From the IMG/VR virus record IMGVR_UViG_3300025889_000075, positions 91,132-155,131 of that record: a stretch of DNA of 64,000 nucleotides, one strand, 5' to 3'. Position 1 is the first letter of the stretch. Each line of letters starts with the position of its first letter. Under the pieces are notes generated by a model that worked only from the letters and a program-made list of their open reading frames with translations, was not told where the DNA came from and did no database searches. The DNA comes from a virus. The position numbers and the translations under genes were made by a program. This document shows, in pieces, positions 20,716 to 48,394 of the stretch.

Positions 20716-21306
20716 ATGAAACCAAGTGAAAAACCCCATTACGTTAACAACGCAGAATTTTCTGCAGCAGTCGTAAAGTACGTAAGTTCTGCTAACCAAG
20801 CGAAAGAGAATAATGAACCTAAGCCAATCATTCCTGACTATGTGGCAAGATGTTTCCTTAAAATTGCTGAAGGGTTGTCACACAAAGCAAACTTTGTTCG
20901 TTATACCTATCGCGAAGAAATGGTTATGGATGCAGTAGAGAACTGCCTCAAAGCAATTGAGAATTATAATCTGGAAACTGCAACCAGGACAGGTAAACCA
21001 AATGCTTTCGCATATTTTACCCAGATTGCTTGGTATGCATTTTTACGAAGAATTCAAAAAGAAAAGAAACAGCAAGATATCAAATTAAAGTATCTCGCTG
21101 AGTCGGGTTTAGAGCTTCTTGTTTCTGAGGAGATAGATAATGATGAAGCATCAAGACAAACCCAAGCATTTGTTGATGAATTAAGACAAAGAATCGATGT
21201 TGTCAAAGAACACGATAACCAATTTACTCAATATGTCAAAGAAGAAAAAACTAGAAGAAGAACGAGACACGCGGACTCTGACTTAACCGAATTCTTGGTG
21301 AATTAA
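20716..21306 (+). CDS. g55: late sigma factor gp55
   Basis: HYVNNAEF, NAFAYFTQIAWYAFLRRIQKEK. Confidence 0.93.
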   Translation: MKPSEKPHYVNNAEFSAAVVKYVSSANQAKENNEPKPIIPDYVARCFLKIAEGLSHKANFVRYTYREEMVMDAVENCLKAIENYNLETATRTGKPNAFAYFTQIAWYAFLRRIQKEKKQQDIKLKYLAESGLELLVSEEIDNDEASRQTQAFVDELRQRIDVVKEHDNQFTQYVKEEKTRRRTRHADSDLTEFLVN

Positions 21307-24271: not shown

Positions 24272-24946
24272 ATGCAACTAAGTGAAAAGACTGTAGAGAT
24301 TCTGCGCAACTTTTCTTCTATTAACCCCAACGTTGTTATTAATGAAGGCAAAGTTGTTAAGACTATCTCAGAGGCGAAAAACGTTTTGAGTACAGCGGTG
24401 CTTGATGACGAGTTTCCATCTACATTTGGAATCTATGATCTCAACGAATTCCTAAGTGTTATCTCTTTGGTTGACGACGCTCGACTAAAGTTTGAGAGCA
24501 CACATGTCTTAATTGGTGATGGTAGCGGTAGATCACGAATCAAGTATTTTTATTCTGATCTTGATATGCTGACTAAACCCTCTAAAGATATTATAATGCC
24601 AGAGGCAGAAGTGAAGTTTGAACTTGATGAAGAAGTATTACGTCGGGTTAAAAAAGCATCTTCTGTTCTCGGACATACAGAGATGTCAGTCTCTGCTTCA
24701 AATGGTGTGATTAGTTTATCGGTAATTGACAACAACGACAAGACTTCCAACGTCTTTTCAATTGACGTCAACGGTACGGTAAACAGCGAGAATTTTAACT
24801 TCGTATTTAACATTAGTAATCTTAAGATGATTGATGGTAATTATGATGTTTCAATTTCCTCTAAATTAATTTCGCACTTTGTTAACAAAGAAACCGCTAT
24901 CGAATATTGGGTAGCACTCGAAAAATCCAGTACGTACGGAGAATAA
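24272..24946 (+). CDS. g45: sliding clamp gp45
   Basis: LRNFSSIN, FGIYDLNEFL, YWVALE. Confidence 0.93.
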   Translation: MQLSEKTVEILRNFSSINPNVVINEGKVVKTISEAKNVLSTAVLDDEFPSTFGIYDLNEFLSVISLVDDARLKFESTHVLIGDGSGRSRIKYFYSDLDMLTKPSKDIIMPEAEVKFELDEEVLRRVKKASSVLGHTEMSVSASNGVISLSVIDNNDKTSNVFSIDVNGTVNSENFNFVFNISNLKMIDGNYDVSISSKLISHFVNKETAIEYWVALEKSSTYGE

Positions 24947-27726: not shown

Positions 27727-27755
27727 CCTTGCTTAAAGATAAGGAGGCAAATATG
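27727..27755 (+). promoter_or_regulatory. ROSE-like RNA thermometer hairpin occluding the hsp20 Shine-Dalgarno
   Basis: CCUU(G)CUUA pairs with UAAGGAGG with a bulged G; UUGCU motif. Confidence 0.6.
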
Positions 27756-28184
27756 GTTACTACACGTACTAAAGTGTTTTCATTTCCACATTCTCGTTTC
27801 ATTGGTTTCGACCATGTCTGGGATGAGATCGAAAGACTAACTGCTGCTGGCGCTAACGAAAAGGGATTTCCCCGTCACAATATTGTTAAGTATAGTGATA
27901 CGGAATATGCCATGGAGTTTGCACTCGGTGGTTACAGGAAGAAAGATCTAGAGATCGAAGCAAAACCTGGCGTCTTGGTGATTCGCGGTAATCCTGAAGA
28001 CGATACTCGACAGTATCTTCACAAGGGTATTACAACGAAGAAGTTCGTGGAAACTTTTAGACTTGCTGACCACGTTGTCGTTGATGGAGCTGAATTCGTC
28101 AACGGACTACTAGTCATTAAATTGAGAGTGGAACTACCCGAAGAACAGCGTCCGAGAAAGATCCAAATTCAATCTCACTCATAA
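27753..28184 (+). CDS. hsp20: small heat shock protein Hsp20 (IbpA-like)
   Basis: FP.HNI, YLHKGI, F.NGLL.I.L....PEE..P..I.I. Confidence 0.92.
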   Translation: MVTTRTKVFSFPHSRFIGFDHVWDEIERLTAAGANEKGFPRHNIVKYSDTEYAMEFALGGYRKKDLEIEAKPGVLVIRGNPEDDTRQYLHKGITTKKFVETFRLADHVVVDGAEFVNGLLVIKLRVELPEEQRPRKIQIQSHS

Positions 28185-29372: not shown

Positions 29373-31802
29373 ATGAAATTCTATACTAATGTATCAAAAG
29401 TCGGCAACAACATCCTCTATCGAGGATACAAAGACGGTCAACGTCATTCAGAGAAAATAAAATTTAAACCGACCCTTTTCGTTGAGTCCCCAAACGCCAC
29501 TGGTGAATACAAAACCCTGTACGGCAAACCTGTTGCTCCTATGCAGTTTGACGATTTAAACGAGGCGAGGGATTTCTACGAAAGATACAAAAACGTTCAA
29601 AACTTCGAGATACACGGAATGAGTAATTTTGTGTATCAGTATCTCGCGCACGCATACCCGAACGAAGTTAAGTTTGACCGCGACCGAATCAACGTCACCA
29701 CAATAGACATTGAGGTTGCTTCAGACGAAGGGTTCCCAGAACCAGCACAGGCAAACCACCAAGTTATCTCAATTACTTGCAAGAATAATATCGACAACGT
29801 CTATTATGTTTGGGGATTATATCACTATGATGAAACCCTGAGCGAAAAAAATATTAATTATTTCCTTTGTGAAAACGAAGCAAACTTACTTCGTTCTTTC
29901 CTTGGTTGGTGGTCCAGCGCAGTCAATTACCCTGACGTTGTAACTGGTTGGAACACCAAGATGTTTGATATACCTTATCTCGTTAATAGAATTGAGCATG
30001 TCCTCGGAAACAATGAATACAAAAGACTCTCCCCATGGGGTTTGGTCAAAGAACGTAAGTTCCATACGCGCATGGGTCAGGAAGCATTCACCTACGAACT
30101 CGAAGGTATCTCTAGTCTCGATTATTATGATCTGTTTCAAAAGTTTGGCGTCCTAACCTACGGACAACAGGAATCATTTAAACTTGATCATATTGCCCAC
30201 GTTGTCCTCGGCGAGAAGAAACTATCCTATGAAGAGTACGGTTCGCTACACTCTCTTTACCGTCATGACTTTCAAAAGTTTATTGACTACAATATCAAAG
30301 ACGTTGAACTTGTCGACCGTCTCGAAGAAAAGATGGCATTGATCACGCTCGCTATGACTATGGCGTACAAAGCGAAATGTAATTATAATGATGCATTCGG
30401 CACGACTGGTATATGGGACTCTGTTATATACAACGAACTGATTCCACTCAAGATCATCGTTCCCCCAAAGGTTGACAAGTTCAAGTCATCAATCGTTGGT
30501 GGGTTCGTTAAAGATCCAAAGATTGGAATGCATGAATGGGTTTGTTCCTTTGATTTAAATTCTCTCTATCCCAATATCATTGTACAATATAATATGTCGC
30601 CCGAGACTATTAGTGAAGACGGTATTTGCGAGGCAGCAAACGGGACTCGATATCGTAATGATGTTGAAGGTATCATTCCCCGAGTAATTAAGAAGTTCTA
30701 TGCTGACCGCGTTGAAGCGAAAGATAAAATGCTCGAGGCGAAGAGAAAATATCAAGAGGCACCGACTAAAAAACTAGAGAATGAAATCACGATCTACGAT
30801 AACCAGCAGATGGCAGTTAAGATCTTGATGAACTCTCTCTATGGTGCGCTCGCGAATAAGTATTTTCGTTACTTCGATTTACGTATTGCTGAGGCAGTTA
30901 CGACCTCTGGTCAACGAGCGATCCTCTGCGCCGAGAAGGCAGTTAATGATGAGATGCAAGAAATACTTGGCACTAAAGAAGATTATGTCCTGGCGATTGA
31001 CACTGACTCAGTTTACATTAACATGGCACCTCTTGTAACTGAACATAAACCAGCGAACCCAGTTAAGTTTCTTGATAAAGTCTGTGAACATTTTGAGAAG
31101 AAGATTGCCAAGGCATATGAGAAACAAGCAAAGGAAACAAAGGCATACGAAAACCGTATGATCATGAAGCGGGAAGCGATTGCCGACCGAGGCATCTGGA
31201 CTGCTAAGAAGCGATATATACTACAGGTACACAATAACGAGGGTGTACAATATACTGAACCTAAGATGAAGGTCATGGGTATTGAGGCGATTAAATCCAG
31301 CACGCCCCAGATCTGCCGTGATAAGTTTCAGGAAATCTTTAAGGTGTTGTTGAATGGGTCTGAGTCTGAGACCCAGAAGTTTATCCGAGAGTTCAAGAAA
31401 GAGTTTTGTTCGACTCGTCCTGAGGAGGTTGCCTTTCCAAGAACTGCTAAAGAGATATCTAAGTTTCGTGATAAGAATACGATCTATGGTAAGGGCACTC
31501 CAATTCATGTGCGCGGGTCGCTTCTTTATAATCATTACATTAAGGAGAATAAATTACAAAACAAGTATGAATTAATTAAGAACGGTGAGAAGATCAAGTT
31601 TGTTTACCTCAGGACACCAAATTTTATCAAAGAAAATATCATCGCATTTCCGAACGAATTTCCAACTGAGTTGAAACTGCATAAATACGTGGACTATGAG
31701 AAAATGTTTGACAAAACATTCCTTGAACCGTTACGTCCTCTCCTCGACGCTATCGGGTGGCAGGACGAACCTAAAGCGTCCCTTGAAGATTTCTTTGGAT
31801 AA
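29373..31802 (+). CDS. g43: family B DNA polymerase gp43
   Basis: DIEV exonuclease, [23 protein letters not shown]; C-terminal SLEDFFG. Confidence 0.97.
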
Positions 31803-36407: not shown

Positions 36408-36671
36408 ATGGATCCATTATATCAAACGGTCTTAACACTTTTTTGTATGTTTGGTGCATATCTTTGGGGTAGGTCCCAAGGAGTTATGTCTGGTTGTACA
36501 ATGACTTGGTTGGTTGTTATTGAGAGTTTTCGAGCGAAAGAATTGAATATTGATGAAGATACCCAAGAAATATTCTTTACGGATAATTGGGGCAGAGTCA
36601 AAAGTTCTCTAACATTTTGGAATGAAGATGGAAATCGAGATAAAGAACCAGAAGTTCTTGAGCAGACTTAA
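36408..36671 (+). CDS. hypothetical membrane protein
   Basis: RBS, N-terminal hydrophobic segment. Confidence 0.55.
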   Translation: MDPLYQTVLTLFCMFGAYLWGRSQGVMSGCTMTWLVVIESFRAKELNIDEDTQEIFFTDNWGRVKSSLTFWNEDGNRDKEPEVLEQT

Positions 36672-37278
36672 TGGTCTGATTGAAGAGTTTAATAGTATTA
36701 GAGGCGATTCTATACTACCTTCTATAAAATCTGTTGATTCTAATTTTGAATCATATCTTTCAAGAGAAAGACTTAATGAGTTAATGTCCGCTCCTCATCG
36801 CGGGGATCCAGTGGACTATCATGCCACACCCGTTGGTGATCTTAGATTAAAATATTCTGAATGGATTAATTTTTATAATGAATGGCGATTTGAAGTTCCT
36901 TCAGAAATGGGTATGGCAACTTGTGCGTTGATCAATCATTATCCTGAACAAGGATTGACGGGTTGGCATACTAATTGGAATGCCAATGCATATCAAATCC
37001 TTTTCACTTGGTCAGAAACAGGCGATGGGTACTTTTGTTACTTAGATAAAGAAAAAGATGAAATAATTAAAATTCAGGACAAACCTGGATGGCAATGTAG
37101 GTGGTTCTATTTCGGTAGAGAAGACGAACCTGAACATCATTGTTGGCATGGTTGTTATACGAATTGTGAAAGATTTACACTAGCATATAAATTTTCAAAT
37201 CAAAGTAAAAACTCAAAAGTAGATTTAATTGCTCAGGAGATGAGAGATGAATTTATCGCAGAGATCACAACAGTTTAA
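36622..37278 (+). CDS. hypothetical, possible double-stranded beta-helix oxygenase
   Basis: GWHTN...CWH...RFTLAY pattern. Confidence 0.4.
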   Translation: MKMEIEIKNQKFLSRLNGLIEEFNSIRGDSILPSIKSVDSNFESYLSRERLNELMSAPHRGDPVDYHATPVGDLRLKYSEWINFYNEWRFEVPSEMGMATCALINHYPEQGLTGWHTNWNANAYQILFTWSETGDGYFCYLDKEKDEIIKIQDKPGWQCRWFYFGREDEPEHHCWHGCYTNCERFTLAYKFSNQSKNSKVDLIAQEMRDEFIAEITTV

Positions 37279-37903
37279 ATTCATAGAAATTTTAGTTATA
37301 ATATTGACAATGTCAGTATTGTTAATTTATGCGGGGAGCGGAGATGAAAAACAAAAACCTGAAGAGGAAATTGTTATTACGCCGTTCTCAGAAACAGGCG
37401 AACAAGATATCGAAACAACCTCCGAAGAAACGGAAGAAATGGATCAATCAAGTGAAGGCGAGCGAGTATTGGATAGCGAACTTTATTGCCTTTCTCTTAA
37501 CATTTACCACGAGTCTCGCGGTGATTCATTCGCTGGCCAAGCTGCTGTAGCAGACGTAGTGCTCAATCGAGTAGAAGATACTTACTATCCAAATACCGTC
37601 TGCGAGGTTGTTAAACAAGCAGTCTATATAGAAAACTGGAAAGGAAACGTAGTACCGAAAAGACATATGTGTCAATTCTCTTGGTATTGTGACGGGATAA
37701 GTGATGAACCAGGAGATCCTGATGCTTGGATGGAATCTTACTTTCTTGCTGAAGAAGTATTGACAAAAGATGCATGGAGAGGTATAACTGAAGGCGCGAC
37801 GCATTATCATGCTGCACACATAAGACCTAATTGGACTGCAGATAGAGGAATGACTTATACGGGTTCAATTGGAGGACATGAGTTTTATAGATGGATAAGA
37901 TAA
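37247..37903 (+). CDS. membrane-anchored cell wall hydrolase (SleB/Hydrolase_2)
   Basis: CLSLNIYHESRG, VVLNRV, CQFSW, GATHYHA, IGGHEFY. Confidence 0.88.
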   Translation: MNLSQRSQQFKFIEILVIILTMSVLLIYAGSGDEKQKPEEEIVITPFSETGEQDIETTSEETEEMDQSSEGERVLDSELYCLSLNIYHESRGDSFAGQAAVADVVLNRVEDTYYPNTVCEVVKQAVYIENWKGNVVPKRHMCQFSWYCDGISDEPGDPDAWMESYFLAEEVLTKDAWRGITEGATHYHAAHIRPNWTADRGMTYTGSIGGHEFYRWIR

Positions 37904-37915
37904 ATTATGAAATGG

Positions 37916-37944
37916 TTGACAAATAAGATAGAAAATAGTAAGAT
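37916..37944 (+). promoter_or_regulatory. sigma70 promoter for the TET/GT operon
   Basis: TTGACA-N17-TAAGAT. Confidence 0.6.
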
Positions 37945-37986
37945 GGAACTATTCTTGGATACTATTGGACTTGAGGAATTTATGTT

Positions 37987-38316
37987 ATGAAACAAAACTT
38001 ATTCACTGAAGGTGTACAATATCGAAAGTTGTTGCCTGAACTTTCTTTAATGACTGTCTATGGTAAAAAAGATGTCGTTATGAAGCGATGTAAATGTTGC
38101 GGCGTGGTAAAATGTGGAAGCGAGTTTTATTTAAAACCAAATTCAAAAACCGAATTAAGAGATTTTTGCACCTCCTGTCACTCCAAAGATACACAAGAAA
38201 GAAGTAAAAGACTTAGATATAAAACCGCAAAGTATAAAGAAATGGTGCGGCGCAGAAAAGAAGAAGAAAAACGAAAGCGAGAAAATGCAGGATCTCTAGA
38301 GGAATTCATGGTATGA
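37987..38316 (+). CDS. Cys4 zinc-finger protein with clamp-binding-like tail
   Basis: CKCC...CTSC; ends SLEEFMV. Confidence 0.55.
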   Translation: MKQNLFTEGVQYRKLLPELSLMTVYGKKDVVMKRCKCCGVVKCGSEFYLKPNSKTELRDFCTSCHSKDTQERSKRLRYKTAKYKEMVRRRKEEEKRKRENAGSLEEFMV

Positions 38317-39644
38317 GAGTTGTCATTGCTGACAAAGTAATTAATTGCGAACACAAACTCGGTACATATATGGAAGATACCGATTACGATCTCTTGGTTG
38401 AAGAGGATATTGACTTCTATGCGCCGATTAAAGAAATTGGTAGAACAGAACCATCAGAGCAAGAGTGTATATTCAAGTTTCGAAAATCTGTGTTTAGCGC
38501 CGAAGAACAACTTGGCGCGTACGAAGGTTTGGTTGGCGCTGCTCAACCAACTCAGAACCGAGGTCTTGCTGCAGGTCCAAAGGGCGAGCGCCTCGGTAGT
38601 AGAAATTGGTGTACTGAAGAGCAAATAGAAATTATGGAACATCTTATGAAAGGCGGAACTTCGCTTTTCTCTGACGACCCAATTGCTGAGATACGCGAAA
38701 AACATAGAAAAATGAAAGTGCAGCCAGAGAGTCGTGGTATTGTTTGGGTTATAACTAAGATTGAAGCGGATGGGTATGAATATGATAATTTCTTTGAAAA
38801 TAAAATTCAGGAAATATTAAAACTTCCTTACGCCGATCGCCGCACAGCTGCTAAACATATGTTCGATACTTACGTATCAAAAACAACTTACGCAAATCAA
38901 GTTTTATCTGGTATTGCTGGATTCTACGATCGATATCCTCGTATTCCTTACGGTCGGGCAACTTCTTATACTGAACATAACTTTTCAACTTATGAAAAAT
39001 GTTATCCATTCATGAGAAAACTATCAAATGAATTTGCCCGACTACTACCTCAGAAGTTTTCTAAACAAGAACATTATGCCAATAAACTTGATGAGCGTTT
39101 TCGAGTTGCCGGTAAAGATACACCATTTACAACAATTACAGTAAATAAAAATTTTAGAACTTCAGCGCATCGCGACGCAGGCGACTTGAGCGAAGGGTTT
39201 TCTAATTTAACAGTTGTCGCTAAAGAAAAGGATTGGGATGGTGGTTATCTTGTGTTGCCCGAATATAGAGTAGCAATCAATGTAAGACCAGGGGATTTAT
39301 TGTTAATTAATAATCATGAAGGTATACATGGCAATACACAAATCATACCGAAAGAAGGAAAAACTTTGGATGAGATGGAACGTATTTCCCTAGTTTGCTA
39401 TTTCCGTGAAAAAATGCTAGAATTGGGTACAATGGAATATGAAAACCATCGTTACAATTTTGTTATCAGTAGAAAAAATAATGAATCACATCCAAATTGG
39501 CGCCCACTTTGGAACGGTGTTAGTGAAGGAATGTGGGAATCAGATGAATGGTTTGATTATCTTGAAACCAACGGCGGTTCTGATATGTTAAATACATATC
39601 ATCCTAATAATGAAAAGTCATCCCTTGAGGCATTTTTTGCATGA
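38313..39644 (+). CDS. TET/JBP-family 2OG-Fe(II) dioxygenase (5-methylpyrimidine oxidase-like)
   Basis: FTTITVNKNFRTSAHRDAGD (HxD), IHGNT, RISLVCYFRE; ends SLEAFFA. Confidence 0.78.
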   Translation: MRVVIADKVINCEHKLGTYMEDTDYDLLVEEDIDFYAPIKEIGRTEPSEQECIFKFRKSVFSAEEQLGAYEGLVGAAQPTQNRGLAAGPKGERLGSRNWCTEEQIEIMEHLMKGGTSLFSDDPIAEIREKHRKMKVQPESRGIVWVITKIEADGYEYDNFFENKIQEILKLPYADRRTAAKHMFDTYVSKTTYANQVLSGIAGFYDRYPRIPYGRATSYTEHNFSTYEKCYPFMRKLSNEFARLLPQKFSKQEHYANKLDERFRVAGKDTPFTTITVNKNFRTSAHRDAGDLSEGFSNLTVVAKEKDWDGGYLVLPEYRVAINVRPGDLLLINNHEGIHGNTQIIPKEGKTLDEMERISLVCYFREKMLELGTMEYENHRYNFVISRKNNESHPNWRPLWNGVSEGMWESDEWFDYLETNGGSDMLNTYHPNNEKSSLEAFFA

Positions 39645-40447
39645 TTGATTACCAGATAGCAGTCCCCAGTTACAAACGACCAGTAACTATTCAAAACAAA
39701 ACACTCAAAGTATTTGAACATCATAACATACCATCCGAAAGAGTTACTATTTTCGTTGCAGACGAAATAGAACATGAAGCATATAAGGTTGCTCTAAATA
39801 ATCACAAATATGGTTCAAACATCGTCATAGGCGTCCCCACAATTGGTGCACAGCGTAATTTTATTGAGAAGTATTATCCCGAAGGCACATTATTAATGAT
39901 GTTTGATGATGACATTGAAGAAGTCCAAAGAAGGCAAGACGAAAAAACTCTTGTACCTATTGACGATTTGTATTCTGAAATCATCGAACAAGGATTTAAT
40001 AAGTGTGCTGAAGTTGGTGCTAAGACCTTCGGTATATATGCAGCATCAAACGCATATTTCATGAAAGATCGAGTTTATACGAAACTTTGTTATATTATTG
40101 CTTCTATGTTTGGCGTCGTCGTTGAGCATGATGATTATCTCGCGCGCGAAACAAATCACGGCGAAGATTATGAATATAGTTTGCGCCAATATGTTAAGAA
40201 TGGTGTTCTCTGCCGACTTGATAACTATACTGTTAAAAGCAACTACTATAAAGAAGAAGGTGGATTACAAACCATTAGAACTAAAGATTATGTACACGAA
40301 TCAATTAGCAAGATTGCTAATATGTTTCCTGACCTTTGTACGATGTACACGCGTAAATCTACTGGTAACGCTGAACTAAGATTACGAGATAGCACTAATG
40401 GTAAATATCAAAAAGCAGAATCAACCCTTGAGGCATTTTTCGTATGA
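39641..40447 (+). CDS. TET-associated GT-A fold glycosyltransferase
   Basis: IAVPSYKR, QRNFI, MFDDDI, GEDYE, EEGGLQ; ends TLEAFFV. Confidence 0.75.
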   Translation: MIDYQIAVPSYKRPVTIQNKTLKVFEHHNIPSERVTIFVADEIEHEAYKVALNNHKYGSNIVIGVPTIGAQRNFIEKYYPEGTLLMMFDDDIEEVQRRQDEKTLVPIDDLYSEIIEQGFNKCAEVGAKTFGIYAASNAYFMKDRVYTKLCYIIASMFGVVVEHDDYLARETNHGEDYEYSLRQYVKNGVLCRLDNYTVKSNYYKEEGGLQTIRTKDYVHESISKIANMFPDLCTMYTRKSTGNAELRLRDSTNGKYQKAESTLEAFFV

Positions 40448-40857
40448 TCGTAGGATTTACTGCAAGCACATTTGACTTGCTTCACGCTGGTCATATTTCT
40501 ATGCTGCGCGAAGCAAAAGAGCAATGCGAATACTTAATTTGTGGTTTGCAAGTTGATCCTTCGTTAGATCGCCCAGAAAAAAATAAACCTGTACAAACTT
40601 TGGTTGAACGTTATATCCAGCTGTCTGCTGTTAAATACGTTGATGAAATTATACCGTATCAATCTGAAGAAGATTTAGAAGATATACTCAAAATGGTTAG
40701 TATCGACATACGTATTATTGGTGCTGAGTATAAGGATAAAAAATTTACTGGTCGCGCTACTTGTGCTTCTCGTGGAATTGAAATATTCTATAACAAGAGA
40801 GACCATAGATTTTCAACCAGCGATTTAAGGAGAAGAGTTAGTGAACTACAAATTTAA
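40444..40857 (+). CDS. cytidylyltransferase (TagD/glycerol-3-phosphate CT-like)
   Basis: FDLLHAGH, KYVDEIIPY, RDHRFSTSDLR. Confidence 0.85.
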   Translation: MIVGFTASTFDLLHAGHISMLREAKEQCEYLICGLQVDPSLDRPEKNKPVQTLVERYIQLSAVKYVDEIIPYQSEEDLEDILKMVSIDIRIIGAEYKDKKFTGRATCASRGIEIFYNKRDHRFSTSDLRRRVSELQI

Positions 40858-41239
40858 TGAAGGCAATTTAATTGCGGAGTTGAAAGAATATGTCGACAAA
40901 ACATACGACGAACATTATGCAACGGATAAATATCAGGCTACTGATGTTATTATTGATAGCGGTCACGGTACTGGGTTTTGCTTGGGTAACGTCATCAAAT
41001 ATGCAAAGCGATATGGACGCAAGGGAGATGCCGCTGAGCAACGTAAGGATCTCATGAAGATTCTTCACTATGCGTTGATTCAATTAAATATACACGACGA
41101 GGCAAACAAACCTGCTAAACCCGCACCATTTCATCATTCCGGTGTTTATCACGGAGATGATGGTAATTACCACAGATATAGCATCGATAATGCAGCAATC
41201 GCAGAGTGGAATAATCTATCAAAGAAAAAAGGAAAGTAA
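40841..41239 (+). CDS. DUF3310-like conserved phage protein
   Basis: HY...GFCLGNVIKYAKRYGRKG...DLMKILHY. Confidence 0.7.
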   Translation: MNYKFNEGNLIAELKEYVDKTYDEHYATDKYQATDVIIDSGHGTGFCLGNVIKYAKRYGRKGDAAEQRKDLMKILHYALIQLNIHDEANKPAKPAPFHHSGVYHGDDGNYHRYSIDNAAIAEWNNLSKKKGK

Positions 41240-41240
41240 T

Positions 41241-41996
41241 ATGAAGAAACTTCTAGCAACTGTATTGTTATTGCCAGCACTAGCATTAGCAAATCCAATT
41301 GACGATAATTGTGCGCAGCATACAATTCATGGTGCTCCAGTTAGCAGCATTACTTCTGGTACTCAGTATATCTGTCACGGTAATTATGCGGTACACTATC
41401 GCTATGATACTAAAACGGCAGAGTACGTTGTTGAGCATTTAGACGACGCTGATATTAACGGCGACGCAAAACGCAGAAACAACTTTAGAGAAGATCCTCT
41501 GGTTGACGATGAAAAAGAAGCACAACTTGAAGATTATAAGGGTCATCCATATGATCGTGGGCATTTGTCACCAGCAGCTGATAATCGTGCTGACTCAGAG
41601 CAGATGAGCGAGAGTTTCTATTTGACTAATATGGTTCCGCAAGATCCTGGTCATAACAGAGGTATCTGGCGTATTCTAGAAATTGGAGTTCGTAATACTG
41701 CTGCCGCTGGTGGTGATATTTACGTTATTAGTGGAACAATCTACGACGAAGGATATAAAGTTATCGGTAACGACTTGGGTGTTCCAACTAGAATTTGGAA
41801 AGTAGTCTTTGATGCCAACACTGGTGAAAGCATTGCCTTCCTGTTTCCGAATGAAAAACTTAGCACTAAGGATATGCCTCTTTATGCTACCTCAGTAGAT
41901 ATGGTAGAAAAAGAAACTGGTATTGACTTCTTCCCAAAAATGGGCGAGAATAAAGAAGACGTATTTGATCTTAACAACTGGCCAGAAATAAAATGA
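41241..41996 (+). CDS. secreted DNA/RNA non-specific endonuclease (NucA/EndoG family)
   Basis: Signal peptide MKKLLATVLLLPALALA; YDRGHLSPAAD, NMVPQ, NRGIW. Confidence 0.88.
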   Translation: MKKLLATVLLLPALALANPIDDNCAQHTIHGAPVSSITSGTQYICHGNYAVHYRYDTKTAEYVVEHLDDADINGDAKRRNNFREDPLVDDEKEAQLEDYKGHPYDRGHLSPAADNRADSEQMSESFYLTNMVPQDPGHNRGIWRILEIGVRNTAAAGGDIYVISGTIYDEGYKVIGNDLGVPTRIWKVVFDANTGESIAFLFPNEKLSTKDMPLYATSVDMVEKETGIDFFPKMGENKEDVFDLNNWPEIK

Positions 41997-42248: not shown

Positions 42249-43085
42249 ATGAAACAATTAAAGACGCCCTTGAGATATCCTGGTGGTAAATCAAGGGCAA
42301 CCAAGTTTTTATTTTCTAAACTTCCTGAAAAAATTCGTGCTTACCGTGAACCATTCTTAGGTGGTGGGTCAGTAGCGATTGAGTTCACTAAACGATTTCC
42401 AGATTGCCCCGTTTGGGTTAATGATAAGTATGCTAATCTTTATCATTTCTGGTCTCAACTTCAGAAAAACGGTGAGGCGCTATATAGTGCTATCTTAAAC
42501 TACAAGTTGAAGGCAGAATCGTATGAAGACGTGGATGCAGCACATCGAGAACTTTTTCTCAAAAGTCGAGAGGAAATCAGTGGACCTCTTGATCCTTTTG
42601 GGATTGCTGTTCGCTTTTTCATTATCAATAAGTGCAGTTTTTCTGGTCTTGGGGAATCTAGTGGATTTTCCGCAGCAGCAAGTAAACAAAACTTTTCCAA
42701 AAACAATATATCGCGATTACCAAAATATTCAGAACTGATTCAGAATTGGTTGATCACTAATAATGATTACACAAAAATCTTAGAAGGTTGTGAACAAGAC
42801 GAGTTTGTTTTCTGTGATCCACCATATGATATTAAATCAGCATTATATGGTAAGAATGGTAAGTATCATTTGTTTTTTGATCATTATGAGTTTTCTGTTG
42901 ACGCAACAAAATGCGCAGGTAATGTAATGATAACGTATAATTCAAATGAAGTACTTCGCGAAATTTATGAGGACTGGAATCAAATAGAATGGGACTTGAC
43001 TTACACTATGCATTCAGGTAAGATGTATCGTGAAGATGAGTCAAACAGAAAGGAATTGCTAATAACAAATTATGAAACTAAATGA
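42249..43085 (+). CDS. dam: DNA adenine methyltransferase (Dam/D12 class)
   Basis: LRYPGGKS, EPFLGGGS, DPPY. Confidence 0.88.
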   Translation: MKQLKTPLRYPGGKSRATKFLFSKLPEKIRAYREPFLGGGSVAIEFTKRFPDCPVWVNDKYANLYHFWSQLQKNGEALYSAILNYKLKAESYEDVDAAHRELFLKSREEISGPLDPFGIAVRFFIINKCSFSGLGESSGFSAAASKQNFSKNNISRLPKYSELIQNWLITNNDYTKILEGCEQDEFVFCDPPYDIKSALYGKNGKYHLFFDHYEFSVDATKCAGNVMITYNSNEVLREIYEDWNQIEWDLTYTMHSGKMYREDESNRKELLITNYETK

Positions 43086-48018: not shown

Positions 48019-48179
48019 CAGATTACACTTCGAAGAAGTGGAACAGTCTCAACGATCTGAAACGAGCGATTGAGAACGATAAAAAAGAAACGGTAATTGA
48101 CTTTAATGGTCATACCCTTTTGACTAAAAAATGGCAATACCAGTTGTATGATGGTATTTTGATTAGGAAGAAAAGATGA
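48015..48179 (+). CDS. small hypothetical protein (54 aa)
   Basis: ATGA overlaps at both ends. Confidence 0.5.
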   Translation: MTDYTSKKWNSLNDLKRAIENDKKETVIDFNGHTLLTKKWQYQLYDGILIRKKR

Positions 48180-48394
48180 CAGTTCGTTATAAACAAGAGA
48201 TCACTGACTGGACGAAAGCACCAGCAACCCCAAACCATATCTACATCACCGATGGGAAAACTCTCATCGGTGTCATTCCACAGTTTGGTCCTCAAAAAGG
48301 GATCAAAAAAATGTTCTCAAAACCCTATCGTCAATGGAGTGCCTCGCGTCGAAAGTTTCGAGAATTATCTCCGAAGGAAATTGAATCTTTATAA
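48176..48394 (+). CDS. hypothetical protein
   Basis: EITDW...PNHIY...SRRKF. Confidence 0.6.
   Translation: MTVRYKQEITDWTKAPATPNHIYITDGKTLIGVIPQFGPQKGIKKMFSKPYRQWSASRRKFRELSPKEIESL

Follow-up and report, generated by a model that had tools for sequence, protein, structure and literature searches.

In bacteriophage T4, the tails of the DNA polymerase gp43, the late sigma factor gp55 and gp33 bind the sliding clamp gp45 and are mutually exchangeable (PMC2988020). For T4 gp55, Geiduschek and Kassavetis described a conserved hydrophobic-acidic epitope placed behind a divergent flexible linker (PMC2988020). Moreover, an interaction of the T4 α-glucosyltransferase with gp45, attributed to Sommer et al. 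(2004) in PMC13216743, was confirmed there, and the two proteins co-purify. The oxidation of DNA bases by phage dioxygenases of the TET/JBP family (5mYOX) and the glycosylation of the product are also published chemistry (PMC8256090; PMC13229309; bioRxiv 10.1101/2023.12.21.572611). Here we report on a five-gene cluster of an uncultured marine T4-like phage, at positions 37,916 to 41,239 of a stretch of 64,000 nucleotides (the window), which corresponds to bases 91132-155131 of the 155-kb viral record IMGVR_UViG_3300025889_000075, judged 89% complete. Three of its products, namely a Zn-ribbon protein, a predicted TET/JBP-family dioxygenase (TET) and a TET-associated glycosyltransferase (TAGT), end in peptides that resemble the tail of the phage's own gp43. 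We consider it likely, though with some reserve, that these tails are gp45 clamp-binding peptides tethering a TET/TAGT hypermodification, probably of thymine.

The tails resemble the gp43, gp55 and gp33 epitopes of T4 and RB69 in being short hydrophobic-acidic peptides that close the protein chain after a divergent linker and are common to the polymerase and other clients. They differ in their bearers, which here are base-modifying enzymes and a Zn-ribbon protein, in the register ([ST]LExFF, compared to SLDFLF in T4), and in that docking to gp45 is a prediction here. The T4 α-glucosyltransferase is likewise a phage DNA glycosyltransferase on the phage clamp, proposed to modify DNA during replication; however, it has no gp43-like tail (it ends ...FDIITK) and belongs to another glycosyltransferase family (PF11440). 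In addition, T4 is without a dioxygenase, and its 5-hydroxymethylcytosine (5hmC) is made ahead of replication. The phage 5mYOX or TET-JBP pathways with glycosyltransferases resemble the locus in that Tet_JBP adjoins a GT-A gene, C5-methyltransferase and ParB are lacking, and methylase and endonuclease genes lie nearby (PMC8256090; bioRxiv 10.1101/2023.12.21.572611; PMC13229309). In contrast to them, the dioxygenase described here has 443 residues, the replication module is T4-like, and both TET and the glycosyltransferase bear the polymerase tail.

In trypanosomatids, base J is made by enzymes of the same superfamilies (JBP1/2 and JGT) in two steps, from thymine to 5-hydroxymethyluracil (5hmU) and then to glucosyl-5hmU (PMC13229309; bioRxiv 10.1101/2023.12.21.572611). 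Those enzymes are targeted by a J-binding or SNF2 domain and not by a clamp peptide, and the product of our locus is a predicted one. A further parallel is found in DNMT1, whose PIP box binds PCNA, which serves the maintenance methylation of newly replicated DNA. In both cases a DNA-modifying enzyme would be brought to new DNA by a short clamp peptide, and the tailed Dam-like methylase of phage C48C1, described below, is a direct analogue. The clamp family, the motif and its position (an internal, N-terminal PIP box) are nevertheless unrelated, and the purpose differs, being epigenetic inheritance for DNMT1-PCNA and probably restriction evasion here. In our full-text literature search, no paper was found that describes TET, TAGT or any other DNA-modifying enzyme of a phage as ending in a clamp tail of the polymerase type; the two main papers on phage TET and glycosyltransferase pathways mention clamps only as neighbour genes or together with ParB.

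Polymerase-type tails in the phage and its relatives

The five tails listed in Table 1, those of gp43 and gp55 included, proved to be spelled exactly as an earlier, sequence-only reading of this stretch had claimed. The pattern [ST]LExF[FM] occurs four times in the proteins of the window (20,570 residues), namely in gp43 and the three cluster proteins, and each time a single residue separates it from the C-terminus. Amino-acid composition would predict 0.05 occurrences anywhere and 0.0007 near the C-terminus, and chance is therefore excluded. A six-frame scan of the whole record returned gp43, gp55, the three cluster proteins and a few evident chance matches. As a control of the method, the same kind of scan of T4 bases 1-50,000 returned only gp43 (SLDFLFG) and gp55 (SLDFLYEAND), the pair of known clamp ligands that this part of T4 encodes. 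A PHROG scan for a gp33 candidate among the small neighbouring open reading frames (ORFs) gave nothing useful. In the AlphaFold2 (AF2) model of the dioxygenase, confidence drops over the last 13 residues, where a short helix spans the motif.

Homologues of the dioxygenase numbered 2,639 at E ≤ 1e-10, and tails were counted in the best 120, which are 50-86% identical to it. The motif was kept in 113 of them; five more carried I-for-L or A-for-S/T variants, and two were tail-less. Anchored on the motif, the entropies at S/T-L-E-x-F-F were 0.97, 0.21, 0.78, 2.4, 0.14 and 0.24 bits, while the 30 positions of the linker before it gave 2.3-3.7 bits and the linker length was also variable. This pattern indicates that the tail is under selection. 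We also surveyed 61 related viral loci with 10-kb flanks for modularity. The tail was present in 47 of 60 TETs (with eight more carrying the variant TLEDMFG), in 9 of 11 gp43 and in all 11 TAGTs, and chance matches amounted to about two among some 1,100 other genes of these loci. Conservation in homologues, which the sequence-only reading had proposed to check, was thus found for both enzymes.

In the same loci, the tail was also borne by non-homologous neighbours, namely GNAT acetyltransferases, HNH-like proteins of 221-223 residues and an amino-acid:DNA transferase (PF18724). The tailed GNAT proteins have 216-234 residues and are encoded 1-2 kb upstream of the TET orthologue (L041:8284-8940, L018:4429-5085, L049:1804-2508 and about ten more loci), which points to an acetylation step on the clamp, with either a DNA adduct or a protein as its target. 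The amino-acid:DNA transferases adjoin orthologous TETs in locus L050 (8219-9247), where the protein ends in TLEDFLV, and in Caulobacter phage Cr30 (L003:7024-8253), where it has no tail. We also noted a 106-residue protein (L019:16930-17250) that ends in STLEMFM; its 72-residue homologue in the window (48176-48394) is without a tail.

The tails further match each phage's own polymerase, as read in three relatives. In Stenotrophomonas phage DLP6, gp43 ends in TLDSFFA, TET in TLGDFFV and TAGT in DLSSFFN. In Cr30, the gp43 tail DLSSLFD is paralleled by DLSKLF in a TAGT-like protein. In C48C1, where no TAGT was found, gp43 carries TLEDFFG, TET SLEEFFV, and a Dam-like D12 methylase (L084:14480-15364), encoded directly after gp43, ends in STLDAFFG. 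Six-frame scans of the complete genomes of these phages (ORFs of at least 60 residues) yielded no motif ORFs beyond the tail bearers just listed. In the TAGT family at large, by comparison, the tail was seen in only 2 of 150 representatives, and the other 148 end near the domain boundary. The TAGT domain ends in ...AELRLRD, after which the window protein has 17 appended residues. Conservation, lineage-matching and modularity of the tail are established by these comparisons. That the tails are nevertheless functionless, a product of chance or of shared ancestry of the 3′ ends, can practically be dismissed in view of the excess of C-terminal occurrences (four against 0.0007), the retention of the tail, after a variable linker, in homologues of 50-86% identity, and its presence on at least six unrelated protein families.

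The tail might also bind a partner other than gp45, such as the host β clamp, another phage hub protein, or the tailed proteins one another. The bacterial β-clamp-binding pentapeptide QL[SD]LF has Leu at position 2 and Phe at position 5, and the tail loosely resembles it. We regard such a partner as quite improbable, however. The polymerase of each phage has the same tail, and polymerases of the T4 family use theirs for gp45 (PMC2988020). A related motif is found on gp55, an established ligand of gp45. Furthermore, the tail is found where a gp45 homologue is encoded, and it is lacking on the TETs of the two clamp-less phages that we checked, the podovirus HTVC112P, whose TET gene adjoins ParB, and the siphovirus P12024L. 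The clamp encoded in the window is itself an established gp45 homologue that matches, over its full length, the RB69 clamp (1b77/1b8h, E 2.8e-24).

One TET clade of about 71% identity (loci L021-L024 and L061) had no tail in any reading frame, so that a frameshift is excluded. Its TET (e.g. L021:9065-10402) ends in ...KKKVSLWS and is followed by epimerase-like and UDP-galactopyranose-mutase-like genes, in place of TAGT.

The modifying enzymes and their likely substrate

The domain identity and the catalytic residues of the dioxygenase are established. The protein scored 83.1 bits against PF12851 (curated cut-off 34.9), and the iron triad and the 2-oxoglutarate-binding Arg (H286, D288, H339 and R357) are invariant in 46 homologues, as is R287 of the HRD motif (H286-R287-D288). 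The AF2 model had a predicted local distance difference test (pLDDT) score of 85.5, and its Foldseek matches reached E ~1e-10. Residues 1-388 of the model matched TET2 with Z 20.5 (rmsd 3.8, 271 residues aligned), CMD1 with Z 18.8 and NgTET1 with Z 18.4, whereas AlkB and FTO reached only 12-14. The TET/JBP dioxygenase with an HRD...H...R signature that the sequence-only reading had proposed is therefore upheld, and the model is not that of a non-nucleic-acid enzyme, which that reading had named as grounds for giving the proposal up. A search for a second TET found none in the genome. The gene stands near TAGT, an Endonuclease_NS nuclease and a D12 methylase, with no neighbouring C5-methyltransferase or ParB.

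TAGT, whose gene overlaps that of TET by 4 nt, scored 59.6 bits against PF20691 (cut-off 27.5) and has the GT-A motifs R13, DDD89-91 and EDY175-177. Motifs of the R...DDD...EDY type define phage GT-A DNA glycosyltransferases, a group akin to the glucosyltransferase of the base-J pathway in trypanosomes (bioRxiv 10.1101/2023.12.21.572611). With the family score above its curated cut-off and the motifs in place, the earlier assignment to the GT-A glycosyltransferases was correct. We searched this genome for a second TAGT and for an amino-acid:DNA transferase and found neither.

The Zn-ribbon protein has Cys35, Cys37, Cys38, Cys61 and Cys64 invariant in eight aligned sequences, followed by a very basic helix, and these zinc-binding Cys pairs fit its earlier description as a Zn-finger protein. 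The ending GSLEEFM is also invariant in all eight. A homologue search of 5.8 billion proteins returned only six, that is, the protein itself and five others, all of which end in GSLEEFM. PHROG matches to HNH/EndoVII proteins cover the Zn region only (residues 25-98), its ESM Atlas neighbours are annotated as 'Endonuclease VII family', and no Pfam family, HNH and Endonuclease_7 included, was matched. The AF2 model was poor (pLDDT 64.5). We rejected an active HNH/EndoVII nuclease because there is no His between the Cys pairs; in addition, the His that follows the second Cys pair is Tyr in one homologue. On sequence grounds, the protein would be a DNA-binding accessory protein and not a nuclease. 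One may guess that it is a targeting or activating partner of the dioxygenase.

In terms of the modified base, thymine is the likelier substrate and, by our estimate, a probable one. The sequence-only reading had leaned towards thymine since it saw no C5-methyltransferase in the window. This absence extends to the whole 155-kb record, in which PF00145 had no match even at E ≤ 1. The record also has no ThyA-family gene and encodes ThyX, so thymine is present in the DNA. Phage thymine dioxygenases have been demonstrated, C5-methyltransferases occur in only 6% of the mined 5mYOX pathways, and a ParB-independent subclass of thymine dioxygenases (clade C2) is without C5-methyltransferase neighbours and has glycosyltransferases, methylases and endonucleases nearby (PMC13229309). 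Finally, the amino-acid:DNA transferases that adjoin the orthologous TETs of L050 and Cr30 belong to a thymidine-hypermodification family. Our preference for thymine follows from the lack of C5-methyltransferase and ThyA, the presence of ThyX, the published thymine dioxygenases and these transferases of the relatives.

With the same tether, the substrate could instead be 5-methylcytosine (5mC), which would lead to glycosyl-5hmC, the product of the published phage TET pathways; the methyltransferase behind it would be unrecognised, missing or supplied by the host. 5mC is the substrate of the phage TETs in clades A and B (PMC8256090), the top structural matches of the dioxygenase are 5mC enzymes, and the record is only 89% complete. 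A T4-like precedent also exists in Methylophilales phage Melnitz-3 (L103), whose 328-residue TET adjoins an HhaI-like C5-methyltransferase and ends in NLNDFLGE, similar to the gp55-type tails; the methyltransferase itself is tail-less. We nevertheless judge 5mC to be an unlikely substrate. The Melnitz-3 TET is only 27% identical to ours and falls in a different clade, no PF00145 match was found in the record at the permissive threshold given above, and the relatives pair orthologous TETs with amino-acid:DNA transferases, which are thymidine-pathway enzymes. Most phage 5mYOX pathways, moreover, are without a C5-methyltransferase and have thymine enzymes (PMC13229309).

A third candidate base is N6-methyladenine (6mA) produced by the downstream Dam-like methylase, which the dioxygenase would either demethylate or convert to a hydroxymethyl handle for TAGT. 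The fungal enzyme CcTet was crystallised on 6mA DNA (7w5p, among our structural matches), the D12 methylase gene lies three genes downstream in the window, a methylase of this class is encoded at most 10 kb from TET in nine related loci, and the Dam-like methylase of C48C1 is itself tailed. We consider 6mA very improbable all the same, as N6-hydroxymethyladenine is chemically labile. Dam genes are also common in T4-like phages, whether TET is present or not. The characterised phage enzymes with methylase neighbours, in turn, oxidise thymine (PMC13229309).

Proposed tethering to gp45

We propose that the cluster encodes a post-replicative DNA hypermodification pathway. The Fe(II)/2-oxoglutarate dioxygenase would hydroxylate a 5-methylpyrimidine in DNA, most likely thymine to give 5hmU, and TAGT would add a sugar to the new hydroxyl, yielding a base-J-like product. 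By analogy with the gp43, gp55 and gp33 tails of T4 and RB69, the flexible linker would allow the terminal [S/T]LExF[F/M]x-COOH to dock into the hydrophobic site of gp45. The clamp loader puts clamps at primer ends and nicks, and those that remain behind on the new DNA would gather the modifying enzymes on phage DNA and allow one-dimensional scanning. Such a tether would provide both speed and discrimination of phage from host DNA. The comparative evidence strongly supports the clamp-tether reading, and from it we infer binding of the tails to gp45. The thymine substrate, the identity of the sugar and the place of the Zn-ribbon protein in the pathway are likewise presumed.

Several points weigh against this proposal. 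A 2026 study judged that the clamp interaction of the T4 α-glucosyltransferase is not what chiefly determines modification levels or the α/β ratio (PMC13216743). The tail-less TET clade means that the tether is dispensable in some phages. The Cr30 TET ends in GATLF, which is only a partial match to the tail of its own gp43 and too weak for our scan. At 443 residues, the dioxygenase is longer than the characterised ParB-independent thymine dioxygenases (~290-300 residues). Lastly, a C5-methyltransferase could lie in the missing part of the record.

A more far-reaching version of the proposal, which we regard as possible but rather doubtful, treats the gp45 trimer as a mobile assembly line, in which the Zn-ribbon protein, the dioxygenase and TAGT occupy the three peptide sites together or in turn, and the clamp tail as a transferable address label. 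Both reactions, oxidation and glycosylation, would then proceed along fresh phage DNA in a channelled, processive manner, and host DNA, having no phage clamp, would stay unmodified. As an address label, the tail would have been attached by T4-like phages to the enzymes they acquired, i.e., TET, TAGT, GNAT, amino-acid:DNA transferase, Dam and HNH-like proteins, and in function it would correspond to the ParB activator of other phage thymine dioxygenases.

The rationale for post-replicative hypermodification was called 'a mystery' by the authors of PMC13229309 (2026). Clamp tails offer a testable answer to how the enzymes could find phage DNA quickly and spare that of the host. If the tethering proposal is true, the T4 clamp 'toolbelt' would extend from replication and late transcription to DNA modification, and a bacteriophage parallel to DNMT1-PCNA would be at hand. 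An ending like that of the phage's own polymerase would then be a signature for DNA-acting enzymes in T4-like metagenomic phages. Published screens found some of these enzymes inactive, and adding gp45 together with its loader might raise the activity of such enzymes in heterologous expression.

Gene layout and neighbouring genes

The closest cultured relative is phage C48C1 (Kyanoviridae), whose gp43 shares only 55% identity with that of the source phage; for cyanophage gp43 the value is about 48%. A megablast search of the cluster against cultured phages gave no match. The positions of the features are collected in Table 1.

Table 1. Features of the cluster and of related genes, with positions counted from the first base of the window
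Feature	Position	Strand	Remarks
gp55 late sigma factor	20716..21306	+	related tail DLTEFLVN at 21280-21303
gp45 sliding clamp	24272..24946	+	proposed docking partner; PF09116 E 3.5e-16
gp43 DNA polymerase	29373..31802	+	reference tail bearer; SLEDFFG at 31779-31799
Sigma-70-like promoter candidate	37916..37944	+	TTGACA-17-TAAGAT, 10/12 matches, in 84-nt gap upstream of cluster
Zn-ribbon protein, 109 aa	37987..38316	+	EndoVII/HNH-type zinc ribbon without catalytic His, then basic helix and tail
Tail SLEEFMV, Zn-ribbon protein	38293..38313	+	C-terminal
TET/JBP-family 5-methylpyrimidine dioxygenase (predicted), 443 aa	38313..39644	+	PF12851 E 1.7e-23
Tail SLEAFFA, dioxygenase	39621..39641	+	C-terminal
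TET-associated glycosyltransferase (TAGT, GT-A fold), 268 aa	39641..40447	+	PF20691 E 5.2e-16
Tail TLEAFFV, TAGT	40424..40444	+	C-terminal
Small nucleotidyltransferase (cytidylyl/adenylyl-transferase-like), 137 aa	40444..40857	+	PF01467 E 1.7e-15
DUF3310 protein, 132 aa	40841..41239	+	translationally coupled, tail-less; PF11753 E 1.1e-11, phrog_480
Serratia-type non-specific DNA/RNA endonuclease	41241-41996		PF01223 E 3.5e-46; N-terminal signal peptide MKKLLATVLLLPALALA
Dam-like D12-class adenine methylase	42249-43085		without clamp tail

The sequence-only reading had described one promoter in front of five genes. All five ORFs are placed as it stated, and the 84-nt gap before the cluster, which holds the candidate promoter, is the only such gap. 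The promoter itself fared less well: promoter-like sites in the region numbered 29 against 24.5 expected from shuffled sequence, with no enrichment. Neither does the gene chain stop at five, as it continues past the DUF3310 gene through the nuclease, an 84-residue ORF and the Dam-like methylase to 43085, with spacers of at most 1 nt. The T4-type late-promoter motif TATAAATA was not found between 23.8 and 48.4 kb, and we therefore assigned the cluster to the early/middle replication region, which also holds gp45, gp44/62 and gp43.

The small nucleotidyltransferase passed only the domain-level model TIGR00125. Its scores were well below the equivalog cut-offs of both TagD (TIGR01518, 68.6 vs 165.4) and RfaE-II (TIGR02199, 76.7 vs 181.5), and we rejected either identity for this protein. 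A related gene was present in five of nine well-flanked loci with TAGT and in three of twelve without it, which is a weak trend. The earlier suggestion that a cytidylyltransferase supplies a CDP-polyol or CDP-sugar donor is thus a weak one; the link of the protein to the pathway is one of adjacency only, and a CDP-polyol donor is speculation. Among the relatives, nucleotide-sugar genes do stand beside TET or TAGT, such as an NTP-transferase in DLP6, a glucose-1-phosphate thymidylyltransferase in S-CBWM1 and a UDP-galactopyranose mutase in C48C1, and in view of these a donor-supply role in general is plausible. The DUF3310 protein was recognised correctly in the sequence-only reading and has no evident link to the pathway.

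The gene of the Serratia-type nuclease starts one base past the DUF3310 stop codon, within the same gene chain. The enzyme could degrade unmodified DNA, yet it looks exported. Directly upstream of the cluster, a SleB-type cell-wall hydrolase is encoded (37247-37903, PF07486 E 4.7e-21) that has an acidic linker and, at its N-terminus, a membrane anchor; its position is kept in 15 related loci. The preceding gene (36622-37278) encodes a Trp/His/Cys-rich protein of 218 residues (WHTNW, HHCWHGC) that has no family match in Pfam, PHROGs or NCBIfam and a single homologue, in locus L050. Within the replication module, we also observed a small heat-shock protein of the Hsp20 family (27729-28184, phrog_432 E 1e-30).

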